Position numbers and translations under genes: made by a program. Positions 6,055-63,598 of a stretch of 64,000 bases of DNA are shown here, piece after piece (position 1 is the first letter of the stretch; each line of letters starts with the position of its first letter). Source of the stretch: a plasmid; sequence record NZ_CP043850.1; one strand, 5' to 3'. Under the pieces are notes generated by a model. The model ran no database searches and had not been told where the DNA came from. It saw only the letters and a list, made by a program, of their open reading frames with translations.

Positions 6055-6067
6055 CCACCCTCGAACC

Positions 6068-42773: not shown

Positions 42774-42792
42774 GCCAGGAAGGACACGACCG

Positions 42793-45881: not shown

Positions 45882-47749
45882 TCCACGCCCGCACACTGAC
45901 GTTGGCCGCCGGGGTCACCGTCCTGGCCGCCCAGCTCTGGGCCGCTCCGGCCGCCCTCGCAGCCCCCAGGGACGGGGCGCCCGCGCAGGGCTCGGGGGTG
46001 ATGGGCCTGGACGAGTGGCGCGCGCAGGTCACGGACACCGCCGGCGTGCCCATCGAGAAGTACCGTGCTCTGCCTCTGGACCACGGAACCGCGATCGAGC
46101 TCGACATCGAGCACTCCATGAAGCGCTCGGCTCTGGTCTCCATCCTGGACCTGCTGTGGGGGATCCACTACGAGATCGTCACCACCGTGATGTGGCTGTT
46201 GCACACCCTGCTCTCCTTCGAGTGGGTCGGCTGGTTCGCCGCCCCCATGGAGTCCTTCGGGGCTGCGGTGGGCCAGATGGTCGCACAGATCCACTGGATT
46301 CCCCTGGCCTCGATGATCAGCGGTCTGGCGATTGCGTTGCTCTTCGCTGCCCGCAAGCGCGGAGCGGCATGGGGAGAGCTGGCTCTGAGCGTGACGATGG
46401 TCATCGTGGCCACCAACATGGCATTGAACCCGGTGGCCTACGTCACCGGCGACAACGGCGTGCTCACCAAGGCCGAGGAGGCCGCCGGCCAGATCAGCGT
46501 CGAGATCGCCGGCGGCGCCGACCAGCTGGATTCCGGGGCCAGCGCCTCGGAGGTCATGGGGCAGACGCTCACCGCGGATCTGACCGACATGCTCATGCGC
46601 GGACCCTCGCAAGCAGTGGCGTTCGGTGAGTCCCTCACCGGGGAATGTGACGCCGTCTTCACCCAGACCATGAGCGAGTCCGACCCGATGAAGGTCGAGG
46701 AGAAGACGGTGATGGACCCGATCAAGGACTGCAGCGAGTCCGCGGCCAGCTGGTCCGAGTCCATCTCCTTCACTCGCATCGCCCCGATGGTGATGATCAA
46801 CCTGGGGTCCCTGGCGTTCAGTGCCATGGCCTTCGTGCTCGGTCTCGTACTGATCGTGGCTGTGCTGATGGCCCTGTTCTACGCGCTCTACCAAGGGTTG
46901 GCGGTGCTGGTGGCAATCCTGCCCCTCCGCAGCCGACTGGGCTTCTTCAACGCCTTCATCGGCGTGCTGGCCTGCGCGGTGGGCATCGTGGCCGCGATCG
47001 TCACCGTGAGCCTGTGCCTGCAGCTGCTCAAGGAGCTCCTGGCGGTCACCGCGGGGCTGGGCGTGACGGTGCAGATGCTGCTGATGGTCATCGTGCTCGT
47101 CGTGCTGTGCTTCCTGATCTTCCGCGCCTATGGGGCATCCCGGGCCAAGGGGCGCGCTCTGGCCCGGTGGCTGTCGGGGCTGGGCCTGTCCAAGCAGGGC
47201 GGCAGCAACAAGGTCAAGGCACTGGCCGGCGCCGGCGGCGCCGCTGCGGCCGGATACAAGGCCCGCAAGTGGATCGAGCAGCGCAGAGGCAAGACCGAGA
47301 CCGAGGAGACCGGCCGACCTCGGGCGGGCCTGCGCACGGCCGGCGGAGGACCAGATGCCGCAGCCCAGCCTGGCGCCGGACCACGGCGTCCAGGGCCTGG
47401 GCCCACCCGTCCGGGGCTGCCGACAGCCCCGGTGCTGCGGGCCGTCGGCACGGGCGCGGCCGGCGTGGGCGGCCCCTGGGGAGCGGCCGCCGGCGCAGCC
47501 GCTCACCTTGCAGCGTCTCGCCTCGAGAGGGGGGCGCACCGTCGTGAGCTGGCGGCCCCGCGGCCGCGCAAGGTCGAGCGCTTCTCCCGCATCCAGATCG
47601 ACAAGAACGGGCAGGCGGTCGTGAACCCTCCTCGCCGCGAGGTCGTCGAAGGCACTGTCGTGCCCCCGCATCAGGGACCGCGGCCTCGGCAGCAGTCCTC
47701 CGAGGCGACTCGGCGCATGCGTGAGCGGCTGCACCAGGAGCATCCGTGA
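45878..47749 (+). CDS. VirB6-like (ConG/TrbL-like) polytopic membrane protein with a signal peptide
   Basis: Signal peptide and more than 6 TM helices. Gly/Ala/Arg-rich C-terminal tail. Confidence 0.55.
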   Translation: MIHARTLTLAAGVTVLAAQLWAAPAALAAPRDGAPAQGSGVMGLDEWRAQVTDTAGVPIEKYRALPLDHGTAIELDIEHSMKRSALVSILDLLWGIHYEIVTTVMWLLHTLLSFEWVGWFAAPMESFGAAVGQMVAQIHWIPLASMISGLAIALLFAARKRGAAWGELALSVTMVIVATNMALNPVAYVTGDNGVLTKAEEAAGQISVEIAGGADQLDSGASASEVMGQTLTADLTDMLMRGPSQAVAFGESLTGECDAVFTQTMSESDPMKVEEKTVMDPIKDCSESAASWSESISFTRIAPMVMINLGSLAFSAMAFVLGLVLIVAVLMALFYALYQGLAVLVAILPLRSRLGFFNAFIGVLACAVGIVAAIVTVSLCLQLLKELLAVTAGLGVTVQMLLMVIVLVVLCFLIFRAYGASRAKGRALARWLSGLGLSKQGGSNKVKALAGAGGAAAAGYKARKWIEQRRGKTETEETGRPRAGLRTAGGGPDAAAQPGAGPRRPGPGPTRPGLPTAPVLRAVGTGAAGVGGPWGAAAGAAAHLAASRLERGAHRRELAAPRPRKVERFSRIQIDKNGQAVVNPPRREVVEGTVVPPHQGPRPRQQSSEATRRMRERLHQEHP

Positions 47750-49512
47750 GCACGGGTAAGCAGGAAGAGCACCACGAGCCAACCGGTGCCGCAGGGGCAC
47801 GAGCGCGCCGGGCGGTGATCATGGTCGCCGCCTCGATCGTCCTCTGCATCGGACTGCTCATCGTGCTGGTGCTGGGCCTGGTCATGTTCACCGGCGCCGG
47901 CCTGGAGAAGAAGCGACAGCAGGATCTGGCCGCGAGCACCTGTCTGGCCCCGGAGGTGGCAGCAGGGGTCGCCGGCGACGGCTCGGTCGCGGTGCCCGTG
48001 GCGGGGATCGTCACCAGCATGTTCGGCCCCCGAGACAACCCGTTCGGCCCGGGCGGCGGTGGAGGCGGCTCCGGGCTGACCAACCACGTCGCCGTGGACA
48101 TCGGGGCGCCGGAAGGCACCCCGATCTACGCGGCCATGGACGGCACCGTGGACGTGGTCTCTCTCGGCGGGCAGGAGGACGGCAACGGCGTTCTCATCGA
48201 CAGCGGGGGAGGGGTGAAGATCCTGTACTGGCACGCAGCCAACAACACGATCCGGGTCAAGGAAGGCGACGTCGTCAAGGTCGGTCAGCACATCGCCGGA
48301 GTCGGAGACACCGGCGTCGCCACCGGCTACCACCTGCACATGGAGGTGCGAGTCAATGGGGAGAAGATCGACCCGGCGGCCTTCTTCCGGGAGCGCGGTC
48401 TGATCTTCGAGCTGCGCAAGCCTCCCCGGCTGGTGGAGACCGCACGCAAGACGGGCGCCAGCGCCTCATCCTCGGCCACGTCCGCCTCGGCTGAACCCTC
48501 TCAGGGGCAGAACGATCCCACCCAGCTGCAGACCGAGCAGGTGAAGGTGATGTTGCCCGAGGGCATCGAGTACGAGCTCAAGCCCGAGCAGATCCGCAAC
48601 GCCGCGGCCATCATCGGCGCCGGCCAGGCCGCGGAGGTCTCCGACCAGGCGATCATCGTGGCGCTGATGACGGCGCTGCAGGAGAGCATGCTCTACAACC
48701 TCGCCTCCCCTGCGGTCCCGGAGTCGCTGGCCTACCCTCACGACCGGCAAGCGGTGAACAAGGCCTCGGTCGGGTTGTTCCAGCAGCAGTACACGATGGG
48801 GTGGGGTCCGGTGGCGGACCTGATGCAGCCGTCGATCTCAGCGCGGACCTTCTACCTAGGGAGGGAGAACCCGAATGATGCGCCAGCGCTGGGGCTGCTG
48901 GACTACCCCGGATGGGAGAGCATGCACCCGGGAGTGGCCGCGCAGGTCGTGCAGAAGAGCGCCCACCCCGACGCCTACATCAAGTGGGAGCAGACCGCCA
49001 CGCAGATCCTCTCGCAGGTGACCGGAACCGCGCCGGTGCCCTCGGCCTGTTCAGGTCCGGCGGTGCCTGCAGGCGAACAGCCCGGCCCAGCCGATGGAGC
49101 TCGCGCCCGGGACGAGAGCACCCTGGACCTGCAGATCCCTGCTGGTCTCAGCCGTGAGGACATCGTCGCGGCCGCGGAGTCCGGTGTGGGCGGGGCCTTC
49201 ACGTACGGCGCCGCCGACTTCCAGTCCTGGGACTCCAGCGGGTTCGTCTACTGGGTCTACCGGGATCAGGGAATCGAGATGCCGCGCACCTCCCCGTGGG
49301 CGGCCGGTGAGCGCACGCAGACGCCCCAGCCCGGCGACCTGGTCGCTCAGCAGTGGAACGCCCAGCGCCAGCGGTGGGACCACGTCGGGATCTACGTGGG
49401 CGACGGGATGATGATCTCCGCCATCAACGAGGACGCCGGTACCCGCAAGCACCCGGTCACCCAGACCGGTGAGTCTCCCGTCTACTTCACCATCCTCAAG
49501 GAGCAGCAGTGA
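47746..49512 (+). CDS. Bifunctional cell-wall hydrolase (M23/LytM peptidase + C-terminal NlpC/P60), T4SS-associated
   Basis: N-terminal TM helix. HLHMEVRVNG is an M23 motif. C-terminal ..SSGFVYWVY..HVGIYVGDGMMIS is NlpC/P60-like. Confidence 0.7.
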   Translation: MSTGKQEEHHEPTGAAGARARRAVIMVAASIVLCIGLLIVLVLGLVMFTGAGLEKKRQQDLAASTCLAPEVAAGVAGDGSVAVPVAGIVTSMFGPRDNPFGPGGGGGGSGLTNHVAVDIGAPEGTPIYAAMDGTVDVVSLGGQEDGNGVLIDSGGGVKILYWHAANNTIRVKEGDVVKVGQHIAGVGDTGVATGYHLHMEVRVNGEKIDPAAFFRERGLIFELRKPPRLVETARKTGASASSSATSASAEPSQGQNDPTQLQTEQVKVMLPEGIEYELKPEQIRNAAAIIGAGQAAEVSDQAIIVALMTALQESMLYNLASPAVPESLAYPHDRQAVNKASVGLFQQQYTMGWGPVADLMQPSISARTFYLGRENPNDAPALGLLDYPGWESMHPGVAAQVVQKSAHPDAYIKWEQTATQILSQVTGTAPVPSACSGPAVPAGEQPGPADGARARDESTLDLQIPAGLSREDIVAAAESGVGGAFTYGAADFQSWDSSGFVYWVYRDQGIEMPRTSPWAAGERTQTPQPGDLVAQQWNAQRQRWDHVGIYVGDGMMISAINEDAGTRKHPVTQTGESPVYFTILKEQQ

Positions 49513-50315
49513 CCACTCAGAGCCCCGCCCCCCAGGAGCCTGCTGGCCATGGCCGCGTGTGGCCCTACCTCGCCGGTGCCGCCGCCGCGGCAGCCCTCGG
49601 GGTCAGCCTGTTCGCCATGGGATCAGACCCGGAGCCCTCACCGACCCCAGCGGCCTCCGCGGGGTCAGCGCAGGCGCGCGTCAGCGAGGCGCCCACGGCG
49701 CCGGTCACCTCCCCGGCGACCTCGGCTGCCCCGTCCAGTTCCCCCTCCCCGGCCTCGAGCAGTCGGGACACGGGTCGGGAAAAAAGCTCGCAGACCCCGA
49801 TCGACCTGTCTGGAAAAGGCCAGGTCAGCGAGGAATCGGTCAGTCCTGAGCGGGAGGCGCAGATGCAGGTGGAACAGCAGGCTCAGGCCCGGGCCGTAGC
49901 GGGCGCAGACGCCTCGAGCCGGCAGCGGGCGGAGCAGGTGGCCGAGGCCTTCGTGCTCGCCTCGAATGAGCGCACCTGGCAGACCGGGCGGCAGCAGTGG
50001 GTGCAGCGACTGCAGCAGCTGGCGACCCCTGGGGTGGTGGAGAGCGTGAACGTGGACCAGGACTGGGAGTCGGACAGCCAGCGCCGCTACGTCGAAGCCA
50101 AGGCCGAGACCACCACGCAGATCCAGCAAGTCCAGGCGCAGACGCTCACCAACGATGGGCAGATCGAGGTGGAGGTCGAGTTCGTCACCGAGACCGACAG
50201 CGAGGACCCCTGGGTGAGCAACCCTCCGGTGCGCAAGTCCTTGGTTCTGGTGGTCGATCCAGCCCAGGGCATGGTCGTCGACCAGCTGGACATGACCCCC
50301 AGAGGCGGTTTGTGA
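49509..50315 (+). CDS. Membrane-anchored protein (268 aa); possibly VirB8-like
   Basis: Single TM helix, Ser/Pro-rich linker and a C-terminal globular domain. Last gene of the operon. Confidence 0.4.
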   Translation: MTTQSPAPQEPAGHGRVWPYLAGAAAAAALGVSLFAMGSDPEPSPTPAASAGSAQARVSEAPTAPVTSPATSAAPSSSPSPASSSRDTGREKSSQTPIDLSGKGQVSEESVSPEREAQMQVEQQAQARAVAGADASSRQRAEQVAEAFVLASNERTWQTGRQQWVQRLQQLATPGVVESVNVDQDWESDSQRRYVEAKAETTTQIQQVQAQTLTNDGQIEVEVEFVTETDSEDPWVSNPPVRKSLVLVVDPAQGMVVDQLDMTPRGGL

Positions 50316-50505
50316 GCGCCGACTGAGGCCCCTCGTCTAGGGCGTCCACTCGCACAGGGTGGGCGCCCTTGATGCTGTCCGGGCTGTGGCGATGGGGGAC
50401 GGCGTGGTCAAGCCCCTCGTGATGGCGTAGACGGCCAGGAGCGCCAGGGGTCCTGGGGCCGGGCGAAGCGGGGCACGGGGGAAGGCGCGCCGGTTGTCGA
50501 GATGC

Positions 50506-50543
50506 AGCGAAGAGTTCACACGACGCGCGGTGAACTCTTCGCA
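50506..50543. other. Perfect palindrome GCGAAGAGTTCAC-N10-GTGAACTCTTCGC (terminator or nick-site candidate)
   Basis: 13-bp perfect inverted repeat lying between the T4SS operon and the IS. Confidence 0.5.
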
Positions 50544-50782
50544 TATCAGGCGGGATCCGGTCGGCGTGAAATCTGGGTGTCCCGGTGGGCGCTCCCGCGC
50601 GCCCCAGGGCCCGCCAGAAACGTACGGGCGGCTGCCGCTCTGGCGGGTCGGTTGTGGCGAGTCATGTGGCGGGCGGACAGGGTCGGATGTGGCGCGCACG
50701 GCGCATGGCGGGGTTGTCAACGTCGGCCGAATATTGACCCCTTATCGTCGTTGAATTTTGACCCCCTCGAATTGATGTGTTG

Positions 50783-51562
50783 TTACTTGCCCGCGGGTTG
50801 TGCGGGGGTCTTGAGGAGCTCGCGGCGTGCCCTGGTGCGGTAGGAGTCCCCGCCGAGGGTGAGGACTTCCGCGTGGTGAACGAGTCGGTCGATCATCGCG
50901 GCCGCGACGATGTCGTCGGAGAAGATCTCACCCCATCTGCCGAAGGGCATGTTGCTGGTGAGCACGATCGAGCCTTGCTCGTAGCGGGACGCGATGAGTT
51001 GGAAGAACAGGTTCGCGGCGTCCGCGTCGAATGGCAGGTAGCCGACCTCGTCGATGATCAGCATCCGGTAGCGGCGGAGTCGTTTCAGCTCATGCTCGAG
51101 CCGGCCGGCTGCGTGCGCGGCCTGGAGTCGGCCAGCCCAGCCGGTCGCGGTATCGAACAACACCGGGTATCCAGCGTGCGCGGCTTTGATGCCGAGGCCG
51201 ATCGCGAGGTGTGTTTTGCCGACACCGGGTGGGCCGAGCAGGATCACGTTCTCCGCTTTCGGGATGAACGTTGTCGTCGCGAGGTGAGCGAGGACATCGC
51301 GACGCAGCGAGGGCTGATGGTCGGCGTTGAAGTCGTCCAGGGTCTTCACCGCGGGGAAGTGAGCGCCCGCGATTCGCAGTGTCGTTCCGTTCGCTTCCCG
51401 GTCCGCGACCTGGCGTTACAGGACCGCGGTGAGGTATTCCTCGTGGGACCAGCCCTCGGTGCGGGCTTGATCGCCGAGGGTCTCCCAGACCCGGCCGATC
51501 GTGGGGGTCTTCAACGCCCGGGTCAGGTATCCCATCGTCGCCGCGATCTCCGTTTCGGGCAT
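50783..51562 (-). pseudogene. istB: istB (IS21 helper ATPase) with a premature stop (CAA>TAA at 51416-51418; ~Q49*)
   Basis: A single nucleotide difference from copy 2 (ttacag versus ttgcag). The ORF track shows only a 188-aa remnant. Confidence 0.7.
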
Positions 51563-52821
51563 CAGAGGACCTCACCGGTTCGAGGATCGACAGGGAAATC
51601 GACGCCGAACAACTCGTCGTAGTCGGGCAGTTCCCGAAACACCACGCTGGCCGCTGGCTGCCCGCGATGGTGCAGTCGTTCTCGGTCGCGTTTCGCGGCG
51701 CTGAACGTGGAGCGCAGCCCCCTCGCGATCTCGACGTGGACAGGGTCGATGACGGTCGCGTGTTTCGCCCAACAGCGTTCGTGGTCAGCGACGGTGCGGC
51801 CATCGCAGATCACGATCACTCGTGTCAGCGTGGCCGTCACATCCACCAGCCGCCCAATCACGCGAGGGTCAACGGAGTAGTCGTTGGCATCGATGCGGAC
51901 GTAGTAGTCCCGCGCCAATCGGACCCGGTTTCGCAGCCCCGTCACCGGCGGCAGCGGCGGCAACACGGTCATCGCCTGCAGATCCCGCTCCACCACGTCG
52001 ATAGGTCGCCCGCCCAGCGAGCGGATCGTGCGGGAGTTCGCCCGCGGGAGCCACTCCGCGAGTTGGCTGTTGAAACTGTCCGGTGACGCGAACGACCGCC
52101 CGGGCAGGAACGATGTCTCCATGTACTGGTTGTTGCGTTCGGTCATGCCCTTGAACTCCGGATCCCGCGGAGGGGCGAGCACGATCCTCGTCGCCAACGT
52201 TCCCGCGAACGCGGCCGCGGCCTGCGTGACAGTCCCCTTCCCCCCGATCGCGGCCTCACGATCCCAGACGAGCGTCTTCGAGACCCGCCCGACACGAGAG
52301 ATCAGCTGCCACATCCCCGCGACCAGATCGCCCGCCTGCCGGGACGGGAGCATCACCGCGGACAGGAACCGGGAGAACGTCAACGTCATCACGAGCACCG
52401 GCAGCATCAACGCTTGCCCATGCCCGACAGGGATCCGCGGCTCCGGGAACCACAGATCCATCTGCGCGCTCTCGCCAGGAAGATGAATCAGACGATCCGC
52501 GGGATCGACCCCGGCATACTCCGGACGAATCGTCCGGATCCGATCCTTCAGAATCGTGATCGAGTGTTCCCACCCGATCCGCTCCGCGATCACCGTCGCC
52601 GGCATCCTCGCATCCACCACCAAGAGCTTGCGGATCTCGGGCTCCGCAGCGTCAACGAGTGACCCTTTCCCTGCCCGCTGATACGACGGCGGCGTCTCTG
52701 ACGCCAACGCCGACCGCACCGTATTTCGCGCCACACCGAGCCGACGCACGATCTCCTTGATCGACACGCCCTCCGCCCGATGCAACCGCCTGATCTCTGC
52801 CCACTGTTCCAAATTGATCAC
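51562..52821 (-). CDS. istA: IS21-family transposase IstA
   Basis: 419 aa with an N-terminal HTH and a DDE domain. ATGA overlap with istB. Confidence 0.8.
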   Translation of the reverse strand: MINLEQWAEIRRLHRAEGVSIKEIVRRLGVARNTVRSALASETPPSYQRAGKGSLVDAAEPEIRKLLVVDARMPATVIAERIGWEHSITILKDRIRTIRPEYAGVDPADRLIHLPGESAQMDLWFPEPRIPVGHGQALMLPVLVMTLTFSRFLSAVMLPSRQAGDLVAGMWQLISRVGRVSKTLVWDREAAIGGKGTVTQAAAAFAGTLATRIVLAPPRDPEFKGMTERNNQYMETSFLPGRSFASPDSFNSQLAEWLPRANSRTIRSLGGRPIDVVERDLQAMTVLPPLPPVTGLRNRVRLARDYYVRIDANDYSVDPRVIGRLVDVTATLTRVIVICDGRTVADHERCWAKHATVIDPVHVEIARGLRSTFSAAKRDRERLHHRGQPAASVVFRELPDYDELFGVDFPVDPRTGEVL

Positions 52822-52892
52822 CCTCCAAAGGATGCCCGGAAGGGGTCAAAATTCCCCGACGCTCAGGGGTCAGTATTCACGCGTCGTCGACA

Positions 52893-53664
52893 GCACCCGC
52901 TCGGAAAGCCACCCGTCGCTCCGCTTCTGTCGGCCGTCGCCGCGGAGGCTGCGGGCACGTTCGTCCTCGTGTTCGGAGTCATCGGAGCGGCGACCTTCTC
53001 CGCATCCTTTTCGAAGTCGGATGTCGCGGTGAACATCGGATTCCTCGGCGTCGCCTTCGCGCTCGGGCTCAGCGTGCTCGTCGGCGCCATCGCCTGGGGC
53101 CCCGTGTCGGGCGGCCACTTCAACCCTGCCGTCACGCTCGGATTGGCGACCGCCGGATTCTTCTCGTGGCGCCGCGTCCCGGCCTACATCGCGTCGCAGT
53201 TCGTGGGTGGGCTACTCGCGTCCACCGCACTTGTTCTCGTTGCGGCGGGCACCAGCACGGAATTCCTGTCAGACGCTCGAAAGAGCGGATTCGCGTCCAC
53301 CGGCTGGGGACCGCTCTCACCAAGCGGGGCCTCCTGGGAGGCGGCGTTCCTCATCGAGGCGGTCACCACGGCCGTGCTCATGGCGGTCGTCCTCGCCGTC
53401 TCCACTCGTCGCACGGACGCGACGCTCGCGCCGCTGGCCATCGGGTTCACGCTGACGGTGGCGGCGCTCGTCGCGATCCCGATCTCGAACGGCTCTTTCA
53501 ACCCGGCCCGCTCGATAGCGACCGCCGTCTACGGGGGCCCTGTCGCGCTCGAGCAGTTGTGGCTCTCGCTCGTCGCGCCAACCCTCGGCGCGGCGCTGGT
53601 CGGCCTCGTCGTGACAGCGGTCCGCCACCTCGCGCCGCGAGCGAGGAGAAGCTCCTACATCTGA
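52893..53664 (+). CDS. MIP-family channel (aquaporin/glycerol facilitator) whose native 5' end is disrupted by the IS21 insertion
   Basis: Two NPA motifs (HFNPAVT, SFNPARS) and six TM helices. The reading frame continues upstream into the IS end (ORF 52780..). Confidence 0.6.
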
Positions 53665-53708
53665 GTGCGGTGCGTGTTCCATCCCGGAGATCCGGGACGG
53701 CGTGACGC

Positions 53709-53930
53709 TTATGCGGCCGCGTCGACGACCTTCGTCGCGCGGTATGTACTCACGGCGCGGAGGACGGCAGGTGTTGCATGCTGGACGACCCTCAAAGCGC
53801 CGGTCGCGATCTGGAGCCGGCGCTGCACGGCCGCGTCGGCAGCCATCTTCAGGCCGATCTCTATGCCACGTTCGATCCCAACGGCAACGCCGCGGTTGAA
53901 GCCGAGACCGTAAACAGGACTTCCCATGAG
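53709..53930 (-). CDS. Small hypothetical protein (74 aa)
   Basis: RBS GGGGAG before the ATG at 53930. Low confidence. Confidence 0.25.
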   Translation of the reverse strand, partial: LMGSPVYGLGFNRGVAVGIERGIEIGLKMAADAAVQRRLQIATGALRVVQHATPAVLRAVSTYRATKVVDAAA

Positions 53931-54016
53931 TGCTCCCCAGATTGAGTGGTGCTGTCGAGCGTAGTGAGATCCGGGAGCGCCAGACCGTGAGGTGGCTGGG
54001 ACTTCAGGCGGAATCG

Positions 54017-54785
54017 TCAGGCTGTCGGCGCATCCTCGTTCACCGACGGAGGCACCGGCCCACGAGCGGCACGTACGCCAGCCCTGTACGCGCGCATCTC
54101 CCGTCGCGCGAATCGCTGATGGACGAACCATTCCCGAATGGTTCGTCCCAGACGGCGGCGGCGGACGTCGTCGACAAACATCAGCCATCCCACCCGAACC
54201 GACCGTGCCCGCTGCGTGACCTTGTTGTCGGACGGGTCCGAGACGAGCAACCATCGTTGCACCTGCACGTCCGGGCTGGAGCGCGGCTCCGCGAGCTCGT
54301 CAACATGGTCTTCCAAAACCCCGACGATGACGTTGCGGCGTTGCTCCGGGTATGCCCATTCCCTCGTGACGCGTTGCGCGCGAGCGAGGGTGAATTCGTA
54401 CTCCGTGCGCGCAATCGGTTCCATGCCCGGTCGGCAGTGCGGGTAGCAACTGCTCCGCGGTGTGACCCAGCTTCCGGAGGAACGCCTCGACCTCGCCCCG
54501 CTGACGTTGCGCGCGAGGAGACGTCACGCGGTCACTCCACAATCGCACCGCGTCACCGTACTGACGGGCGAAGTCCGACCGCGCCAGCCCGTCTTCGCGG
54601 CCGGCGAGCGACAACGCCGACACGGCGATGGCGAACTCGTCTCCGACAGACCGGTCGAGCTGGAAGTCACGATTGGAGCGAGCCTCGCGGCTGGCGTCGC
54701 GTGCGATGACCAATCCGACCAGAGCAAGGATCACCGACAGCAGAGACGCGATGACCTGGATCCAGGTCGCGAAGGCGTTGTCCAC
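54017..54785 (-). pseudogene. Frameshifted gene for a membrane-anchored protein (ORFs 54300..54785 and 54017..54424 overlap in different frames)
   Basis: Two adjacent ORFs with a 125-bp out-of-frame overlap. N-terminal TM helix in the upstream part. Confidence 0.3.
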
Positions 54786-54882
54786 AGACGAACAGTATCG
54801 TCAGGACGCCGCATTCTTCCTTCCAAGAATGCAGAAGAGGTGCACCCGGATCCCGGGTGCACCTCTTCTACTGCGCCGCTTC

Positions 54883-55719
54883 TTACTTCTGGATGAAGGC
54901 GAGGAGGTCAGGGTTGATGACCTCGGCGTGCGTGGTCAGCATGCCGTGCGGGTAGCCGGCGTACAGCTTCAGCTCAGAGTTCTGGAGGAGCTCGTGCTGC
55001 AGGAGCGCGGCGGCCTTGTAGGGAACGACCTGGTCGTCGTCGCCCTGCATGACGAGAACGGGGACCGTGATGGCCTTGAGGTCTTCGGTCTGGTCGGTCT
55101 CGGAGAAGGCCTTGATGCCCTCGTAGTGAGCGAGCGCGCTGCCCGTCATGCCCTGACGCCACCAGTTCGCGACGACCGGCTCGGACACCTCGACACCGTC
55201 GCGGTTGAAGCCGTAGAACGGACCCGACGCCACGGCCTGGAAGAACTCGGCACGGTTGGCGGCGAGAGCGGAACGGAAACCGTCGAGGACCTCGATGGGC
55301 GTGCCCTCGGGGTTGCTGTCGGACTTCAGCATGATGGGAGGAACCGAGGAGACGAGCACGGCCTTGGCGACACGACCCTGGGGCTGACCGTACTTGGCGA
55401 CGTAGCGAGCGACCTGGCCGCCGCCGGTGGAGTGGCCGATGTGGATGGCGTTCTGCAGGTCGAGGTGCTCGACGACGGCGTTCACGTCGCTGGCGTAGTG
55501 GTCCATGTCGTGGCCGGTGCTGATCTGCGACGAACGTCCGTGGCCGCGGCGGTCGCTGGCGACGACGCGGTAGCCCTTCGAGAGGAAGTAGAGCATCTGT
55601 GCGTCCCAGTCGTCGGACGACAGCGGCCAGCCGTGGTGGAACACGATGGGCTGGGCGTTCTTGTCGCCCCAGTCCTTGAAGTAGATCTCTGCGCCGTCTT
55701 CGGTGGTGATGTATCCCAT
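54883..55719 (-). CDS. Alpha/beta hydrolase, non-haem haloperoxidase/arylesterase family
   Basis: GYITTEDGAEIYFKDWG..PIVFHHGWPL..GHSTGGG nucleophile elbow. RBS AAAGGA before the ATG at 55719. Confidence 0.7.
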   Translation of the reverse strand: MGYITTEDGAEIYFKDWGDKNAQPIVFHHGWPLSSDDWDAQMLYFLSKGYRVVASDRRGHGRSSQISTGHDMDHYASDVNAVVEHLDLQNAIHIGHSTGGGQVARYVAKYGQPQGRVAKAVLVSSVPPIMLKSDSNPEGTPIEVLDGFRSALAANRAEFFQAVASGPFYGFNRDGVEVSEPVVANWWRQGMTGSALAHYEGIKAFSETDQTEDLKAITVPVLVMQGDDDQVVPYKAAALLQHELLQNSELKLYAGYPHGMLTTHAEVINPDLLAFIQK

Positions 55720-55896
55720 GATGAGTCCTTTGTCATGTCGTCGAACGAGCAAGCCCGCGCGACTGGTGGGTAGTTTGCGCCTCGACGATGTGGCGACTGC
55801 ATTCACGGTAACTTTCGGGCGCCCGCGATGTCAACGTCGGCCGAATATTGACCCCTTATCGTCGTTGAATTTTGACCCCCTCGAATTGATGTGTTG

Positions 55897-56676
55897 TTAC
55901 TTGCCCGCGGGTTGTGCGGGGGTCTTGAGGAGCTCGCGGCGTGCCCTGGTGCGGTAGGAGTCCCCGCCGAGGGTGAGGACTTCCGCGTGGTGAACGAGTC
56001 GGTCGATCATCGCGGCCGCGACGATGTCGTCGGAGAAGATCTCACCCCATCTGCCGAAGGGCATGTTGCTGGTGAGCACGATCGAGCCTTGCTCGTAGCG
56101 GGACGCGATGAGTTGGAAGAACAGGTTCGCGGCGTCCGCGTCGAATGGCAGGTAGCCGACCTCGTCGATGATCAGCATCCGGTAGCGGCGGAGTCGTTTC
56201 AGCTCATGCTCGAGCCGGCCGGCTGCGTGCGCGGCCTGGAGTCGGCCAGCCCAGCCGGTCGCGGTATCGAACAACACCGGGTATCCAGCGTGCGCGGCTT
56301 TGATGCCGAGGCCGATCGCGAGGTGTGTTTTGCCGACACCGGGTGGGCCGAGCAGGATCACGTTCTCCGCTTTCGGGATGAACGTTGTCGTCGCGAGGTG
56401 AGCGAGGACATCGCGACGCAGCGAGGGCTGATGGTCGGCGTTGAAGTCGTCCAGGGTCTTCACCGCGGGGAAGTGAGCGCCCGCGATTCGCAGTGTCGTT
56501 CCGTTCGCTTCCCGGTCCGCGACCTGGCGTTGCAGGACCGCGGTGAGGTATTCCTCGTGGGACCAGCCCTCGGTGCGGGCTTGATCGCCGAGGGTCTCCC
56601 AGACCCGGCCGATCGTGGGGGTCTTCAACGCCCGGGTCAGGTATCCCATCGTCGCCGCGATCTCCGTTTCGGGCAT
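55897..56676 (-). CDS. istB: IS21 helper ATPase IstB (intact)
   Basis: 259 aa with Walker A GPPGVGKTHLA. Confidence 0.8.
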   Translation of the reverse strand: MPETEIAATMGYLTRALKTPTIGRVWETLGDQARTEGWSHEEYLTAVLQRQVADREANGTTLRIAGAHFPAVKTLDDFNADHQPSLRRDVLAHLATTTFIPKAENVILLGPPGVGKTHLAIGLGIKAAHAGYPVLFDTATGWAGRLQAAHAAGRLEHELKRLRRYRMLIIDEVGYLPFDADAANLFFQLIASRYEQGSIVLTSNMPFGRWGEIFSDDIVAAAMIDRLVHHAEVLTLGGDSYRTRARRELLKTPAQPAGK

Positions 56677-57935
56677 CAGAGGACCTCACCGGTTCGAGGA
56701 TCGACAGGGAAATCGACGCCGAACAACTCGTCGTAGTCGGGCAGTTCCCGAAACACCACGCTGGCCGCTGGCTGCCCGCGATGGTGCAGTCGTTCTCGGT
56801 CGCGTTTCGCGGCGCTGAACGTGGAGCGCAGCCCCCTCGCGATCTCGACGTGGACAGGGTCGATGACGGTCGCGTGTTTCGCCCAACAGCGTTCGTGGTC
56901 AGCGACGGTGCGGCCATCGCAGATCACGATCACTCGTGTCAGCGTGGCCGTCACATCCACCAGCCGCCCAATCACGCGAGGGTCAACGGAGTAGTCGTTG
57001 GCATCGATGCGGACGTAGTAGTCCCGCGCCAATCGGACCCGGTTTCGCAGCCCCGTCACCGGCGGCAGCGGCGGCAACACGGTCATCGCCTGCAGATCCC
57101 GCTCCACCACGTCGATAGGTCGCCCGCCCAGCGAGCGGATCGTGCGGGAGTTCGCCCGCGGGAGCCACTCCGCGAGTTGGCTGTTGAAACTGTCCGGTGA
57201 CGCGAACGACCGCCCGGGCAGGAACGATGTCTCCATGTACTGGTTGTTGCGTTCGGTCATGCCCTTGAACTCCGGATCCCGCGGAGGGGCGAGCACGATC
57301 CTCGTCGCCAACGTTCCCGCGAACGCGGCCGCGGCCTGCGTGACAGTCCCCTTCCCCCCGATCGCGGCCTCACGATCCCAGACGAGCGTCTTCGAGACCC
57401 GCCCGACACGAGAGATCAGCTGCCACATCCCCGCGACCAGATCGCCCGCCTGCCGGGACGGGAGCATCACCGCGGACAGGAACCGGGAGAACGTCAACGT
57501 CATCACGAGCACCGGCAGCATCAACGCTTGCCCATGCCCGACAGGGATCCGCGGCTCCGGGAACCACAGATCCATCTGCGCGCTCTCGCCAGGAAGATGA
57601 ATCAGACGATCCGCGGGATCGACCCCGGCATACTCCGGACGAATCGTCCGGATCCGATCCTTCAGAATCGTGATCGAGTGTTCCCACCCGATCCGCTCCG
57701 CGATCACCGTCGCCGGCATCCTCGCATCCACCACCAAGAGCTTGCGGATCTCGGGCTCCGCAGCGTCAACGAGTGACCCTTTCCCTGCCCGCTGATACGA
57801 CGGCGGCGTCTCTGACGCCAACGCCGACCGCACCGTATTTCGCGCCACACCGAGCCGACGCACGATCTCCTTGATCGACACGCCCTCCGCCCGATGCAAC
57901 CGCCTGATCTCTGCCCACTGTTCCAAATTGATCAC
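56676..57935 (-). CDS. istA: IS21-family transposase IstA
   Basis: Identical to the copy 1 istA. Confidence 0.8.
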   Translation of the reverse strand: MINLEQWAEIRRLHRAEGVSIKEIVRRLGVARNTVRSALASETPPSYQRAGKGSLVDAAEPEIRKLLVVDARMPATVIAERIGWEHSITILKDRIRTIRPEYAGVDPADRLIHLPGESAQMDLWFPEPRIPVGHGQALMLPVLVMTLTFSRFLSAVMLPSRQAGDLVAGMWQLISRVGRVSKTLVWDREAAIGGKGTVTQAAAAFAGTLATRIVLAPPRDPEFKGMTERNNQYMETSFLPGRSFASPDSFNSQLAEWLPRANSRTIRSLGGRPIDVVERDLQAMTVLPPLPPVTGLRNRVRLARDYYVRIDANDYSVDPRVIGRLVDVTATLTRVIVICDGRTVADHERCWAKHATVIDPVHVEIARGLRSTFSAAKRDRERLHHRGQPAASVVFRELPDYDELFGVDFPVDPRTGEVL

Positions 57936-58080
57936 CCTCCAAAGGATGCCCGGAAGGGGTCAAAATTCCCCGACGCTCAGGGGTCAGTATTCACGCGTCG
58001 TCGACAGGGGTCCCTCGCCACAAACGACCGAATCTGTCGAGTCAGTTGCAGAGCGCCGGGGTCAAGGGAACGACTCCGCC

Positions 58081-58647
58081 TTAGCGGGGATGGCGGAGGC
58101 CGCGTGACCGTGCGATGAGGCAGACCAGCAGCCCGAGGGCTGCTGCCGTACTGGCAAGGTGGATCGGCCACGCCCACGGGCTGTGGTCGCCCCCGGAGAT
58201 CATGTAGGTGTCGGCCAGGCCCAATCCCATACCGAAGGAGGCCACCCAGTAGGCAGGGGCCGCGGCGGTAAGCAATCCCAGGCCCATGGTCAGGAGCATC
58301 AGAGGGTCGATCCGTGGCCGGCGCCGGGCCAGGCGACCCAGCACGAGGGCGCCGCCGATTCCTGCGAAGAAAGCGAGCGCGGGGAAGGCCGCCAGCTCGA
58401 ACACGCTGACCTGCGGGGCCAAGTCAGCATAGATCTGGGTGAGGCTACGGTCTGCGGGTGCTGCGGCCAGCGGGTTGAGGACGAGGGTCTGCAATGCCCC
58501 GAGGAGGGCCAACATCGCCAGGAGGGAGGGGATCGCAGTGCGTGTCGCCGGACCCATCCACGCAGGCCTAGCGGAGGCGGGTGAGCCGCCAGCGGTGCGG
58601 GGCTCGACCGGGCCCGGGCGGGCAGAAGGCGGGAAAGGGCGCGACAT
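58081..58647 (-). CDS. Hypothetical polytopic membrane protein
   Basis: Multiple hydrophobic helices. Pro/Arg-rich N-terminus. Confidence 0.4.
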   Translation of the reverse strand: MSRPFPPSARPGPVEPRTAGGSPASARPAWMGPATRTAIPSLLAMLALLGALQTLVLNPLAAAPADRSLTQIYADLAPQVSVFELAAFPALAFFAGIGGALVLGRLARRRPRIDPLMLLTMGLGLLTAAAPAYWVASFGMGLGLADTYMISGGDHSPWAWPIHLASTAAALGLLVCLIARSRGLRHPR

Positions 58648-58799
58648 GGGCTCACTCTAGGGCCATCCCCGCGCCTGGCCCTCGGTGACCAAGCAGGGTG
58701 CAGGCGCATTGGCTGGGCATCTGGCTGAGTTGCAGCGGATGGCCCAACTGGCTTCGCCCACTGGCGCGTCTTCGGGACGACGCAAACGACCGAATCTGC

Positions 58800-59297
58800 C
58801 TAATCGACGGGCTGGAATCCAAGTTTCTGGTAGATCCCCATGGCCGCCTCGGAGGTGCCCTCGCCGAAGCGCAGACTCAGGGCGGGGTCGCCGGCGGCGG
58901 AGCAGACGTCGACGGCGTGCTGCACCAGGGCGCGCCCGACCCCCTTCCCGCGCGCGGCGGGATCGGTGAAGAGGTCAATGATGAACGGCCCCGCGAGGTC
59001 CGCGTCCCAGATCGAGTGGGTGACCACCATGATCGCCCCGGCCAGGCGGCCGTCCACCCACGCCGAGGCGCTCGCGTCGGCGCGCAGCTCCCCGTAGTCG
59101 CCGCGGAAGGTCGCCTCCATCTCCTCCCGCGCTTCGGCCAGGTCGGAGGCGGCGACGCCCGGTGGGTAGGCGGCGAGGTAGCACCGGGCCAGGTCATCGG
59201 CCGTCCCCGCGTCCAGTCCTCGGAGCTCGAGGCTTCCAGGGGCGTGGTCAGCGGAGTGGGTCGGCGGCAGGTGAAGGGTCAGCAGGTCAGTAGACAC
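58800..59297 (-). CDS. GNAT-family N-acetyltransferase
   Basis: Motif A region GKGVGRALVQHAV and a C-terminal YQKLGF. Confidence 0.65.
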   Translation of the reverse strand: MSTDLLTLHLPPTHSADHAPGSLELRGLDAGTADDLARCYLAAYPPGVAASDLAEAREEMEATFRGDYGELRADASASAWVDGRLAGAIMVVTHSIWDADLAGPFIIDLFTDPAARGKGVGRALVQHAVDVCSAAGDPALSLRFGEGTSEAAMGIYQKLGFQPVD

Positions 59298-59720
59298 AGG
59301 GGTTCCTCTCGTGATGGTTGGCTACTCACAGTGATGCCGTCACAGAGTGAACATGGTCAGAACGATAACAGCGCACACCTGCTCTCGGAATGAGTCGAGT
59401 CGGTCGGAACATGAGTGACCTATGCATGTCCAAGCAATGCACGCGCTGGCAGTTCGTTTCGGTGGCGGGGATTGGGCCAGCCACAAACAACCGATATGGG
59501 CGTTCAGCGAGGGGGTGAGTCGGTCTCTGCGGATCGGGGGGTCACCGCGGGGAGGTCACAGGGGAGCTTCACGACTGTCCGACTCGCGGCGACGCTTGGT
59601 GATCGCAGTCCGAAAGATGAGCGGCACGATCCCGAGGACGAAAAGACCCCAGCCCACCAGGGCGCGCCATTCCATCTGCGAGTTGGAGAGAACAAGGCTC
59701 CCGGCGAGAGTTGAGTCCCG

Positions 59721-61117
59721 CATAGTGGTGTAGCGCCCGGTGGTCGGGCGTGTCGTCTCAGACGTGGACGCGGCCACCGTGTGATCCGTCGAGTCAACCT
59801 TCCACAGAATCCTCGAATGGAGTCATCACGATGACCGCTCCTCATATTCTCGACCCTGCCGGCCTGCTCGGAGAAGCCCTGTCTGAAGCGTCCCCGGACA
59901 TGATGCGCCATCTGCTGCAGACCATGATCAACACCTTGCTGTCCGCGGATGCCGACGCGGTGGTCGGTGCCGAATGGGGCAAGCCCAGCTCCTCGCGCAC
60001 TGCTCAGCGGAACGGGTACCGCCACCGGGACCTGGACACCCGGGTCGGCACCCTGGACGTGGCCATCCCCAAGCTCAGATCGGGCACGTACTTCCCGGAC
60101 TGGCTACTTGAACGCAGGAAGAGAGCGGAGTCGGCGCTGATCACCGTGGTCGCTGACTGCTACCTCGCCGGGGTCTCGACCCGACGGATGGACAAGCTGG
60201 TCAAGACTCTGGGCGTCAACGCCCTGTCCAAGTCCCAAGTCTCCCGGATGGCCACCGAGCTCGACGAGCAGGTGGAGGCCTTCCGCCACCGGCCGCTCGG
60301 GGAGGCGGGACCGTTCACGTTCGTTGCCGCGGACGCGTTGACGATGAAGGTGCGTGAGGGCGGGCGTGTGGTCAACGCGGTGGTGCTCATCGCCACCGGG
60401 GTCAACGGCGACGGCCACCGCGAAGTGTTGGGCCTGCGGGTGGCCACCAGCGAGACCGGGGCGGCGTGGAACGAGTTCTTCGCCGACCTGGTCGCCCGGG
60501 GCCTGGCCGGGGTCCGGCTGGTCACCTCTGATGCCCACCCCGGGCTCAAGGACGCCATCGCCGCGAACCTGCCCGGTGCGGTGTGGCAACGCTGCCGCAC
60601 CCACTACGCGGCGAACCTGATGGGCATCACCCCGAAGAGCATGTGGCCGGCGGTGAAGGCCATGCTCCACTCGGTCTACGACCAGCCCGATGCCGCCAGC
60701 GTCAACGCCCAGTTCGACCGGCTGCTGGACTACGTGAGCGAGAAACTGCCGGTGGTGGCCGAGCACCTCGATGCTGCCCGGGCCGACATCCTGGCGTTCA
60801 CCACATTCCCCAAGGACGTCTGGACCCAGATCTGGTCGAACAACCCGGCCGAGCGGCTCAACCGCGAGATCCGCCGCCGCACCGACGCGGTGGGCATCTT
60901 CCCCAACCGGGCGGCCATCGTCAGGCTAGTGGGTGCGGTGCTGGCCGAGCAGACCGATGAATGGGCCGAGGGTCGACGCTACCTCGGTCTCGAAGTCCTG
61001 GCCCGCTGCCGACTCACCACCGTGACCAACACCGGAGACGAGGTGGACCCCGACACCGAACTCAACCTCGGCCTCAGCGCCTGACCCCCATGAAGGATCA
61101 GACCGCTACACCATCAC
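59721..61117 (+). mobile_element. IS256-family insertion sequence (~1.4 kb) with short terminal IRs (..GTGGTGTAGCG / CGCTACACCATCAC..)
   Basis: Contains a mutator-type transposase. Boundaries are approximate. Confidence 0.55.
59831..61084 (+). CDS. IS256-family (mutator-type) transposase
   Basis: 417 aa with conserved NGYRHR..L.T and DDE-region motifs. Confidence 0.8.
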   Translation: MTAPHILDPAGLLGEALSEASPDMMRHLLQTMINTLLSADADAVVGAEWGKPSSSRTAQRNGYRHRDLDTRVGTLDVAIPKLRSGTYFPDWLLERRKRAESALITVVADCYLAGVSTRRMDKLVKTLGVNALSKSQVSRMATELDEQVEAFRHRPLGEAGPFTFVAADALTMKVREGGRVVNAVVLIATGVNGDGHREVLGLRVATSETGAAWNEFFADLVARGLAGVRLVTSDAHPGLKDAIAANLPGAVWQRCRTHYAANLMGITPKSMWPAVKAMLHSVYDQPDAASVNAQFDRLLDYVSEKLPVVAEHLDAARADILAFTTFPKDVWTQIWSNNPAERLNREIRRRTDAVGIFPNRAAIVRLVGAVLAEQTDEWAEGRRYLGLEVLARCRLTTVTNTGDEVDPDTELNLGLSA

Positions 61118-61224
61118 GAGGGGCTTGACCCCGGCGAGCCATAGCGCCATGGTCAGCAAGGTGAGGCCCCAGTAGGTTCGCTGTGATTTTCTCATGTCTC
61201 CACAGCAGAAGAGTGGGAGAGGCC

Positions 61225-62505
61225 ATGGGGAAAGGGCCCGGTGGGAGCATGCAGCAGCGACCGATCCGGGCAGAGACGTGGAGACTCCGTTTCGGGGCCA
61301 GCATGGTGGGGGATGGGCCTGGCACCGCGGATCTGGCCCTCGACGAAGCCTGCGGGCCGGGGGAGGATGGGCCGATGAAGGCGAGCGTGCAGGACCTGCT
61401 GGCCGGCCCGCGTGGGCGGCGTCTGTGTCTGGAGGCGACGAGGATGCTCAGCCTCCGGGTTGCCGAGCTGGTGTTCTGGCTGGGCTATGAGCTGGATCCG
61501 GGCCGGGGCACCTCCCTGGTCGTGTGGTCCCCGGGCGGCGGTGCCCTGGAGGCGGGCGCGCGTCCTGCCGTGTCCATCGAGCAGGCGGCGCAAGCGATGG
61601 CCGACCTCGACCTCTCGGGCCTGACGGATGAGGTGGTCCAGGCGGCCCTGGTCGGTACGGTCATGTCGGCCCGGTACTGGCAGGAGCCCGACGGCGAGGA
61701 TGTGCTCGCCGGGCATCCGGCCGTCCAGGCCGCCCTGGAACCGGTGGCCGAGGGCGTGCTGGGCTCGGCAGTGGCCCGGCACTGGGGGAGTCCGCGCGCA
61801 GCGGCGCAGTGGGTGATCGACTGGCGGGCGTTCGAGGATCCGGCCCCGGTGTCCCGGGATGCTCAAGGGGTCCTGGCGGCCTGGGCTCGGGAAGAACGGC
61901 GGCAGGAAGTCCGGGCTGCCACTGAGCATCCTGCTGATCCGACGGCGAACTTCTCCGGGACCTGGTGGTCCATCCCGCAGGGGGCCGTCGTCAGCGTCGG
62001 GCAGATCCCGGCTGGGTTGGACCTCGTCGAGGACGACATCGGCGCGGAGGCGGCCACGGTGATCCCGGTGCGGGGAGCGGGTCGGACGTATGAGGTCCGT
62101 GGCCCCGGTGACTGGGTCCGGCTGTGTCGGTGGTTCCCGCTGGAGGTCAGTGCCTCGCGTCGGCACGACTGGTACCGGGTGACCGGCCGGTCCGGGCGGT
62201 GGGTCATCCCGGACTGGGAGCAGGTCGCTTCCGAGTGGGACGCGGTGCACCTGACCACCTTGGGCTATCTCGGCGCGGCCACGCGCGCTCTGCCCGTGGA
62301 CGCGGACATGGCCACGGTGCTCGCCGGGTGGAACCCGGACACCACCGTGTGGCTCACCGACACGGTCCGTGAGTCGGAGGAGCCCCGCCAATGTTGGCAG
62401 CGCGTATCCGGCGACGACGGATGGGCCCGTTGCTTGCCCGTCCGTGATGTCGGCTCGGAGGGCCCCGCGCGGGGACGCGGGGCCAGCCCGCCGGTGGAGG
62501 GGTGA
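61225..62505 (+). CDS. Hypothetical protein; N-terminus uncertain
   Basis: Long ORF with no recognisable domain. Confidence 0.4.
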   Translation: MGKGPGGSMQQRPIRAETWRLRFGASMVGDGPGTADLALDEACGPGEDGPMKASVQDLLAGPRGRRLCLEATRMLSLRVAELVFWLGYELDPGRGTSLVVWSPGGGALEAGARPAVSIEQAAQAMADLDLSGLTDEVVQAALVGTVMSARYWQEPDGEDVLAGHPAVQAALEPVAEGVLGSAVARHWGSPRAAAQWVIDWRAFEDPAPVSRDAQGVLAAWAREERRQEVRAATEHPADPTANFSGTWWSIPQGAVVSVGQIPAGLDLVEDDIGAEAATVIPVRGAGRTYEVRGPGDWVRLCRWFPLEVSASRRHDWYRVTGRSGRWVIPDWEQVASEWDAVHLTTLGYLGAATRALPVDADMATVLAGWNPDTTVWLTDTVRESEEPRQCWQRVSGDDGWARCLPVRDVGSEGPARGRGASPPVEG

Positions 62506-62876
62506 GCAAGCGCGGGCCTTCTGCGTCGGGCCAGATGCCTTCCACGGAGGCTGTGCTCAGCATCCTTCGGCGTCTGGAGCGGCGTCACTTCAGCCGTGAT
62601 GTCTATGCGCGGTTGCTTGACGCCGACGTGACCGGGGAGGTGCTCACGGTGGTGGCCTGGCAGGGGGGTCCTTCCCCGGCGGACCCGGAGCGGGTGATCG
62701 CTCACCGCACGGACCTGCGCCAGCGTCTGACCGAATGCCGTGGCGATCTCGAGGCGGTGCTGATGGATGCGTTGCAGTTCGGTGTGTACGAACCAAGCTC
62801 GCCGGGCAGGCCGCCGGCGGGGGATGAGCCTGCCCGGCTGCTGGAGAAGTATCCCGAGGCCACCTGGTACGAGTGA
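62502..62876 (+). CDS. Hypothetical protein (GTG start overlapping the upstream stop)
   Basis: GTGA overlap suggests translational coupling. Confidence 0.35.
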   Translation: MSKRGPSASGQMPSTEAVLSILRRLERRHFSRDVYARLLDADVTGEVLTVVAWQGGPSPADPERVIAHRTDLRQRLTECRGDLEAVLMDALQFGVYEPSSPGRPPAGDEPARLLEKYPEATWYE

Positions 62877-63019
62877 GGAAGCTGGAGCGACGCGCGGCAA
62901 CATCTGGTCAGCGTCCAGTCGGGTATACCCCTTTACACACCCCCCGCCGCCACGAGAGGATCACGTCAGAGTGGGTTCATTTTGGACCCGTTGGACATAC
63001 CTGACGGAGGGTCTTAGAC

Positions 63020-63598
63020 GTGGTTGGACAGACTGTGGGGTACGTGCGGGTGAGCTCGGCGGAGCAGAACCTGGACCGCCAGCTCGAGGCGGTGGGGGAG
63101 TGCGACCGTGTCTTCCAGGACAAGATCTCCGGCAGCTCCCGCGCCAAGCGCGCCGGGCTGGCGGAGCTGATGCGGTACGTCCGCGAGGGGGATCTGGTGA
63201 AGGTCGCCTCCATGGACCGGCTGGGCCGGGACACCCGGGACCTGTACGCCATCGTGGACGAACTGACCGACAAGGGGTGCGCGGTGCAGTTCGTGTCCGA
63301 GCGGATCACCGTGGACAAGTCCGGCACCTCCCCGGTGGACGGGCTCATGCTGGGCATCCTGGCCGCGTTCGCTGAGTTCGAGCGTCGACGGATCAAGGAG
63401 CGCCAGGCAGAAGGCATCGCCCTGGCCAAGACGAGAGGCAAGTACGTGCAGGCCCCGAAGCTCTCGGACACCGACGTGGAGCAGGCCCGGGTGATGATCG
63501 AGATGGGGATCCCGAAGGCTGAGGTCGCTCGCACCTTCGGGGTCAGCCGGCAAACCCTGTACACCTCCCTCGCTCGCGGAGCAACGATGTTGCCTTGA
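63020..63598 (+). CDS. Serine recombinase (resolvase/invertase family)
   Basis: GYVRVSSAEQNLDRQ active-site Ser region, C-terminal HTH, RBS GGAGG. Confidence 0.8.
   Translation: MVGQTVGYVRVSSAEQNLDRQLEAVGECDRVFQDKISGSSRAKRAGLAELMRYVREGDLVKVASMDRLGRDTRDLYAIVDELTDKGCAVQFVSERITVDKSGTSPVDGLMLGILAAFAEFERRRIKERQAEGIALAKTRGKYVQAPKLSDTDVEQARVMIEMGIPKAEVARTFGVSRQTLYTSLARGATMLP

Follow-up and report, generated by a model that had tools for sequence, protein, structure and literature searches.

A probable composite transposon of two direct IS21-family copies with Microbacterium-like cargo on a Micrococcus plasmid

The described elements that come closest in organization to the one reported here are IS21 and IS5376. 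We analyzed a stretch of 64,000 nucleotides from a plasmid (sequence record NZ_CP043850.1; hereafter the window), in which two direct copies of an IS21-family insertion sequence (IS) enclose a cargo of 2936 bp. Like IS21 and IS5376, this IS possesses istA and istB genes with overlapping stop and start codons, an IstA composed of helix-turn-helix (HTH), DDE, and β-barrel domains, and an IstB with the IstB_IS21 AAA+ domain. It also shares with them imperfect TG/CA terminal repeats of ∼54 bp that contain two internal repeats, as well as a target duplication of 5 bp (PMC10122671, PMC11208146). In contrast, its IstA is only distantly related in sequence to that of IS5376 (phmmer E-value 1e-17).

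Mobilization of intervening DNA by two IS copies is familiar from Tn5, Tn9, Tn10, and IS26 translocatable units, and the unit in the window resembles these elements in the duplication that surrounds the whole and in the defect of one IS copy. In Tn5, it is IS50L that carries a nonsense mutation, a defective partner beside a functional IS. Unlike all of these, the present unit involves a different IS family with a different chemistry and requires the helper protein IstB. Like those of Tn9, its IS copies have the same orientation, which makes the unit prone to deletion by recombination. IS100-flanked regions in Yersinia are another example of segments bounded by IS21-family elements. Two direct copies of IS21-558 were reportedly involved in the case described by Kehrenberg et al. 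As far as that work is cited in PMC4862533, IS21-558 is tied to the mobility of a cfr segment in staphylococcal plasmids, and to this extent both cases link an IS21-family element to the mobility of adjacent cargo. They differ in that the cargo here contains no resistance gene, its sole intact gene encoding a chloroperoxidase-type hydrolase, in that the hosts are actinomycetes, and in that an empty site, a locus of the donor type, and more than one target site are available.

A further comparison is offered by the (IS21)2 "cointegrase" pathway of R68.45, the details of which are said to be given by Reimmann and Haas and by Schmid et al. 1998. In this replicon fusion by tandem IS21, IstA takes one end from each of two copies (PMC10122671). 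The product has the same order as our locus, namely target, IS, donor DNA, IS, and target, with direct IS copies and a single duplication around the whole. However, abutted tandem ends insert a whole plasmid in the (IS21)2 fusion, whereas the ends in question lie 7.3 kb apart in the window.

The whole IS–cargo–IS unit spans 7292 bp (50715–58006) and is, in our reading, probably a composite transposon of two direct IS21-family copies that moved as a unit; we put the rough probability of this reading at 0.85. A repeat search and a base-by-base comparison of the two copies (50715–52892 and 55829–58006, each 2178 bp, direct orientation) returned a single difference, A at 51418 in copy 1 versus G at 56532 in copy 2. 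The similarity of the copies breaks off exactly at 50715/52892 and 55829/58006. Copy 1 lies between GGGGT and GCACC, and copy 2 lies between CGCGA and GGGGT, so that neither copy alone is bordered by its own duplication; the outer 5-mers (50710–50714 and 58007–58011) are equal, and the inner ones differ. An earlier reading made from the letters of the window alone (the sequence-only reading) had described two such copies with one single-nucleotide polymorphism (SNP), matching outer flanks, and non-matching inner flanks, and all of these features were reproduced at the same coordinates.

Plasmid relatives were gathered by exact look-up of a 268-amino acid protein whose gene (49509–50315) is the left-hand neighbor of the unit, which led to a family of plasmid contigs with a common backbone. 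Among them, L090 (GCA_025148905.2) matches the window without mismatch over 39509–50714 (11,206 bp), 58007–59708 (1,702 bp), and 61130–64000 (2,871 bp), a total of 15.8 kb at 100% identity. The first two matching blocks share exactly 5 bases, GGGGT, at the point where the unit sits in the window. Relative to L090, the window has two additions, the 7292-bp unit and, separate from it, an insertion of the IS256 family. A single GGGGT is also found at the insertion position in L091–L096, and the cargo is absent from L090–L096. At the GGGGT site, no solo IS was seen in any of the related plasmids that were read (L090–L096 are all empty). The two copies of GGGGT in the window therefore correspond to one in the empty-site plasmids, and the empty target with 100% identical flanks, for which the sequence-only reading had proposed to search, indeed exists.

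That reading had also cautioned that the GGGGT match might be due to chance in a G-rich context. The probability of a 5-bp flank match is ∼0.2% at the local base composition (69% G+C), but this number is irrelevant because L090 carries a single GGGGT at the unfilled site, which rules out the chance explanation. The same plasmid bears on a rival scenario of two independent IS insertions into resident plasmid DNA with a fortuitous GGGGT match. The G+C content of 69% does raise the odds of a short match somewhat above 1/1024. However, the 2936 bp are missing from L090, where the flanks are contiguous with one GGGGT; the lack of a duplication around either IS alone and the recurrence of the unit elsewhere with other duplications argue in the same direction. 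We consider this scenario refuted by the empty site and give it practically no credence.

The origin of the cargo was approached by exact look-up of the hydrolase protein encoded in the window. Three IS-free loci obtained in this way (L081, L082, and L086; contig positions 9892–12827) are 100% identical to 52893–55828 with zero mismatches, and the match terminates precisely at both IS ends. The aquaporin gene, which is truncated in the window, is complete in these loci (270 amino acids). A dCTP deaminase encoded beside the native cargo locus is 91–92% identical to Microbacterium proteins, and the closest IstA relatives are actinobacterial, with 84% amino acid identity in a metagenome-assembled genome of the Microbacteriaceae; for these two reasons, we regard the source as Microbacterium-like. 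Among GTDB representative genomes, IstA relatives were found at ≤84% identity only, so that this set yielded neither the source nor the donor genome, and the best nucleotide match to the IS among PLSDB plasmids has 72.5% identity. The exact IS and cargo proteins carry the NCBI label Micrococcus. In the simplest reading, a Microbacterium-like chromosome would have been the place of assembly of the unit, which is at present borne by Micrococcus plasmids. A recent event, as the sequence-only reading had assumed, is supported by the one SNP between the copies, by zero mismatches of the flanks to L090, and by zero mismatches of the cargo to the native locus.

The IS–cargo–IS arrangement, with identical inner junctions and the complete 2936-bp cargo, is present at four further sites, each with its own perfect 5-bp duplication. 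Besides GGGGT in the window, these are TTGTC (L080), GCCTC (L083, L084, and L087), AGGTC (L085), and GAGCA (L088 and L089). More one-sided composite junctions were found in L116, L117, and L128. Solo IS copies with 5-bp duplications occur in L103, L105, L107, and L108. Duplications of 5 bp around a unit at several sites are the standard signature of a composite transposon moving as a unit. The duplication around the whole unit, the unfilled sister molecule, and the independent sites with their own duplications are thus all in place for the present element, and the proposal that the unit transposed whole is supported by the empty site, the foreign cargo, and the additional sites, the latter having come from a check that the sequence-only reading had suggested. 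The limits of the IS, a shift of which would have undone the flank match, did not move; they are fixed by the empty site, the IS-free native cargo locus, and the solo copies.

IS5376 likewise duplicates 5 bp of target, and IstB is reported to be needed for correct duplications (PMC10122671). Across the IS21 family, duplications range from 4 to 8 bp; those at the solo and composite sites seen here are all 5 bp, except in L101. In this 3.5-Mb contig (GCA_977010785.1), a solo IS at 3930–6107 with five private SNPs has no duplication (flanks GTGCT and CGTTC) and adjoins remnants of another IS21-family element; its flanks may reflect a rearrangement between copies.

The single difference between the two copies falls into istB. 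In copy 1, codon 49 is changed from CAA (Gln) to TAA, read as TTA instead of TTG at 51416–51418 on the plus strand. The nonsense SNP that the sequence-only reading had noted in copy 1, with copy 2 intact, was thus confirmed as Q49*. It leaves an N-terminal fragment of 48 amino acids and a possible re-start open reading frame (ORF) of 188 amino acids (50783–51349) that lacks the N-terminal domain. According to published structural work, IstB is essential, and assembly depends on its N-terminal domain as well as on the AAA+ module (PMC11208146). Because the N-terminal domain is required according to that work, the istB allele of copy 1 should be null. It is plausible that IstB from copy 2 could compensate in trans for the dead istB of copy 1.

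The Q49* allele resides on the copy next to the aquaporin gene (MIP-side) in seven of eight composites (the window, L080, L083, L084, L085, L087, and L088), and the intact allele is found on the hydrolase-side copy in five of eight. The reverse configuration, with an intact MIP-side and a stop on the hydrolase side, occurs in none of the eight. The stop/intact arrangement is common to four of the five isolate-derived composites, and the phasing seen in the window is matched in L080, L084, and L087. Among the contigs read, the stop allele is confined to composite-associated copies or to a solo copy at a composite-holding site. This pattern would agree with a fixed configuration that was inherited and from which deletions between the copies later arose.

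Several observations weigh against movement as a composite and have to be considered at this point. At two of the five composite sites, sister assemblies contain a solo IS with the same duplication (TTGTC in L103 versus the composite in L080; GCCTC in L105 versus L084), all four being sister Micrococcus assemblies of the series GCA_0171684xx-5xx. The solo IS could have come first, and the cargo could have followed by homologous recombination. In addition, L085 has the istB stop in both copies and would require IstB in trans, and L088 and L089, which represent one site, differ in their allele state. JGI metagenome contigs were scanned for the exact pattern of abutted IS ends, the junction expected of a circle or tandem intermediate, with 0 matches. 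Several of the contexts, moreover, were assembled from short reads or from metagenomes, where repeats of 2.2 kb are liable to mis-joins and SNP mis-phasing.

The first of these observations forms the basis of an alternative in which a circle of one IS and the cargo, arising by recombination between the direct IS copies of an existing composite, integrated by homologous recombination into a resident solo IS that already had its 5-bp duplication. This capture can be likened to the movement of an IS26 translocatable unit, albeit driven by RecA; we know of no IS26-type conservative targeting of a resident IS in the IS21 family. Capture would account for the sister assemblies in which a composite site holds a solo IS with an identical duplication, the direct 2.2-kb repeats are good recombination substrates, and the resulting end structure is indistinguishable from that of composite transposition. 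However, the GGGGT site was found only empty (L090–L096), never occupied by a solo IS. Capture also predicts mixed allele configurations, whereas the arrangement intact MIP-side/stop hydrolase-side is absent from the eight composites and stop/intact prevails in four of five isolate composites. The istB alleles of the solo copies differ, intact in L103 (TTGTC) and stop in L105 (GCCTC), and capture would need two circle alleles and particular crossovers to explain both sites, whereas a single fixed composite gives rise to either solo allele by simple deletion, according to where the crossover falls. The confinement of the stop allele to composites and composite-holding sites speaks against capture as well, and we consider it unlikely. 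The solo forms in L103 and L105 are compatible with a deletion caused by recombination of the two direct copies, the alternative being that the assembly skipped the loop.

The liability of the repeats to mis-joining also raises the question of an artefact, in which a collapsed repeat would have linked one IS to a cargo contig of unrelated origin. Assembly across 2.2-kb repeats is indeed difficult, and L113 shows a collapsed remnant of 209 bp with inconsistent flanks, an example of why SNP phasing is unreliable in metagenome scaffolds. Nevertheless, the same inner junctions appear in independent isolate assemblies and in metagenomes from several projects, the matched duplications on both outer flanks are unlike the product of a chimeric join, and the SNP between the copies is phased alike in L080, L084, and L087. 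An assembly artefact is, in our judgment, very unlikely. In L113, a metagenome scaffold, the second IS is reduced at ∼9034–9243 to a 209-bp element consisting of two ends with unmatched flanks, which is either an assembly collapse or an internal-deletion derivative resembling a miniature inverted-repeat transposable element.

Composite transposition, the reading that we favor, would have started with two IS insertions on either side of the 2.9-kb segment in a Microbacterium-like chromosome. One founding insertion would have occurred 41 bp inside the aquaporin gene, and the other in intergenic DNA, 109 bp upstream of the chloroperoxidase-type hydrolase gene. GCACC and CGCGA would then be the duplications of these two insertions, and in-situ assembly predicts a left donor junction of CGCCTGCACCCGCACC followed directly by TGTCAACGTCGG and a right donor junction of CGTCGACA followed directly by CGCGACGCCTCCGACAATTG. 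After assembly, the whole unit would have moved repeatedly. For each event, IstA would synapse the outermost ends, which are istB-proximal in copy 1 and istA-proximal in copy 2, and the target would be presented by the AAA+ helper IstB, made from copy 2 or from another copy in the cell; staggered insertion would then create one 5-bp target duplication per event. Abutted outer ends, if formed, would read ...CGTCGACA-N(0-10)-TGTCAACG... Solo copies at composite sites would have arisen when recombination of the two copies with each other removed the cargo together with one IS. The insertion in the window lies between two convergent plasmid genes and duplicated GGGGT; that the moves of the unit were catalyzed by the transposase acting on the outer ends, which for IS21 would be the reaction known from replicon fusion with abutted ends, is what we infer from the structure of the insertions.

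We found no earlier description of this particular unit; composite or IS-bounded segments of IS21-family elements are already known. Near and distant searches of PLSDB returned no record with the composite unit or a close IS copy, the inner IS/cargo junction had 0 exact matches among JGI metagenome contigs, and a literature search that included Micrococcus IS21 composite transposons found no description of the unit. The finding introduces no new principle and will not surprise a specialist. IS21-family composite transposons are nonetheless far less documented than those of IS26, IS10, or IS50, and for this one, public data provide a complete natural history, from the donor-type locus and the empty target to the filled target and the sibling insertions. 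The zero mismatches point to very recent gene flow from a Microbacterium-like chromosome to Micrococcus plasmids, seen in isolates and in several metagenome projects. With an istB nonsense copy beside an intact copy, the unit also represents a natural test case for trans-complementation by IstB.

Both copies of the IS are oriented on the minus strand. Copy 1 (50715–52892) is the MIP-side copy with the istB nonsense allele; its istB occupies 50783–51562 and its intact istA 51562–52821 (419 amino acids). Copy 2 (55829–58006) is the hydrolase-side copy, with istB (55897–56676, 259 amino acids) and istA (56676–57935, 419 amino acids) both intact on the minus strand. istB lies directly downstream of istA, the stop of istA and the start of istB overlapping as TGATG. 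IstA consists of an HTH (HTH_7), a DDE domain (rve, E-value 1.5e-7), and a Mu transposase C-terminal barrel (PF22483, Mu-transpos_C_2, E-value 1e-28) as judged by Pfam. Its conserved D-D-E triad aligns with Asp-124, Asp-187, and Glu-233 of IS5376 IstA (PDB codes 8q4d and 8b4h), which are the catalytic residues of that enzyme (PMC10122671). IstB matches PF01695 (IstB_IS21) with an E-value of 4.7e-72 over 234 of 238 profile positions and contains the Walker A motif GPPGVGKT and the Walker B motif IIDEVG.

The IS ends are 54-nucleotide imperfect inverted repeats, 80% complementary, with the termini TGTC...GACA. Alignment of both ends reveals two internal AATAYTGACCCC-type repeats in each. Imperfect terminal inverted repeats (TIRs) with multiple internal repeats (L1/L2 and R1/R2) are a feature of the IS21 family (PMC11208146). 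The istB-proximal TIR of copy 1 (right inverted repeat, IRR; 50715–50768) begins with TG, contains two of the internal repeats, and forms the left outer end of the composite. The istA-proximal TIR (left inverted repeat, IRL; 52839–52892), delimited by the inverted repeats and the end alignment, is the inner end that adjoins the truncated aquaporin gene. On the right, the composite terminates at 58006 with the istA-proximal end of copy 2. All IS21-family features that we looked for, namely a DDE IstA, an overlapping AAA+ istB, TG...CA repeats, and 5-bp duplications, are present.

The cargo (52893–55828) contains the three genes that the sequence-only reading had recognized, an aquaporin gene disrupted at its 5′ end, a frameshifted membrane gene, and a haloperoxidase-like hydrolase gene. 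All three were borne out and two were refined, since the aquaporin gene has lost only 41 bp and the membrane gene carries a single frameshift that predates capture. The aquaporin/MIP gene (52893–53664, plus strand; PF00230, E-value 3e-37) has lost its promoter and the first 41 bp (13 codons) of the native gene; the native protein has 270 amino acids. By chance, an ATG within the IS (52780) shares the reading frame of the truncated gene, and the resulting fusion ORF has 294 amino acids. The pseudogene (54020–54785, minus strand) corresponds to a hypothetical protein of ∼255 amino acids with one N-terminal membrane helix. Its frameshift lies near 54405–54424, where tblastn with the intact homologues P0048 and P0049 shifts from frame -3 to frame -1, and it is already present in the donor-type locus, the sequence of which is identical. 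Pfam gave no match for the middle ORFs of the cargo, and the pseudogene was recognized solely via three uncharacterized homologues.

The only intact cargo gene (54883–55719, minus strand) encodes a 278-amino acid α/β hydrolase (Abhydrolase_1) of the cofactor-free (non-heme) chloroperoxidase/perhydrolase type, which matches chloroperoxidase L (PDB code 1a88) over its full length with an E-value of 2e-125. The gene keeps 109 bp of native upstream DNA. It has ∼75–78% nucleotide identity to chloroperoxidase or α/β hydrolase genes on many plasmids of Rhizobium, Sinorhizobium, and Agrobacterium, which is unusually high for a cross-phylum comparison. Sequences exactly equal to the hydrolase and to IstA have in addition been deposited for Shigella flexneri (protein accessions EBV8528776.1, EGD7391186.1, and others); these entries most likely represent Micrococcus contamination of the respective assemblies.

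The plasmid that received the unit is of a conjugative type, and its backbone is ∼77% identical to Micrococcus plasmids in PLSDB. The replicon portion at 39509–50315 shows a conjugative-type actinobacterial backbone that comprises RepA_C, TpcC, an 854-amino acid AAA_10 ATPase, and a 588-amino acid peptidase with M23 and NlpC/P60 domains. This backbone is common to many isolate and metagenome contigs at 99–100% identity, with varying downstream regions. The insertion point lies 395 bp past the stop of the gene for the 268-amino acid protein and 70 bp past the stop of the convergent minus-strand gene at 58081. Interruption of a gene by the insertion was considered and rejected, as the rejoined outer flanks give no convincing ORF.

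A 15-bp motif, CGCCACAAACGACCG, occurs at 50659 on the minus strand and at 58016, 58778, and 59479 on the plus strand, as well as within 11151–11225 in L090. To the right of the unit, it recurs between single small minus-strand genes, and the related plasmids L090–L096 are near-identical up to the motif and diverge at once thereafter. The motif looks like a cassette boundary or a site-specific recombination site of the variable region of the plasmid, and it is possibly a bidirectional terminator. At the empty site, the motif and an inverted copy 60 bp upstream form a strong predicted hairpin (-30.2 kcal/mol, z-score -4.0), and the GGGGT target falls within this hairpin.

One may combine these features into a joint reading, in which a selected hydrolase would have promoted spread across families, the asymmetry of the two copies would have been kept to stabilize the unit, and IstB would have chosen the target by means of the hairpin. 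We regard this combination as unlikely. If it were true, the spread from a Microbacteriaceae chromosome to Micrococcaceae plasmids would be driven by selection on the chloroperoxidase/perhydrolase, the istB-null copy on the aquaporin side would be retained because independent movement of that copy is suppressed, and the landing in a hairpin at the edge of a variable cassette region would amount to structure-directed targeting by IstB.

The second insertion by which the window differs from L090 is an IS256-family element with a Mutator-type transposase (59709–61129, 1421 bp; transposase ORF 59750–61084). It is bordered by a 9-bp target duplication, CCCGGCGAG, at 59700–59708 and 61130–61138.

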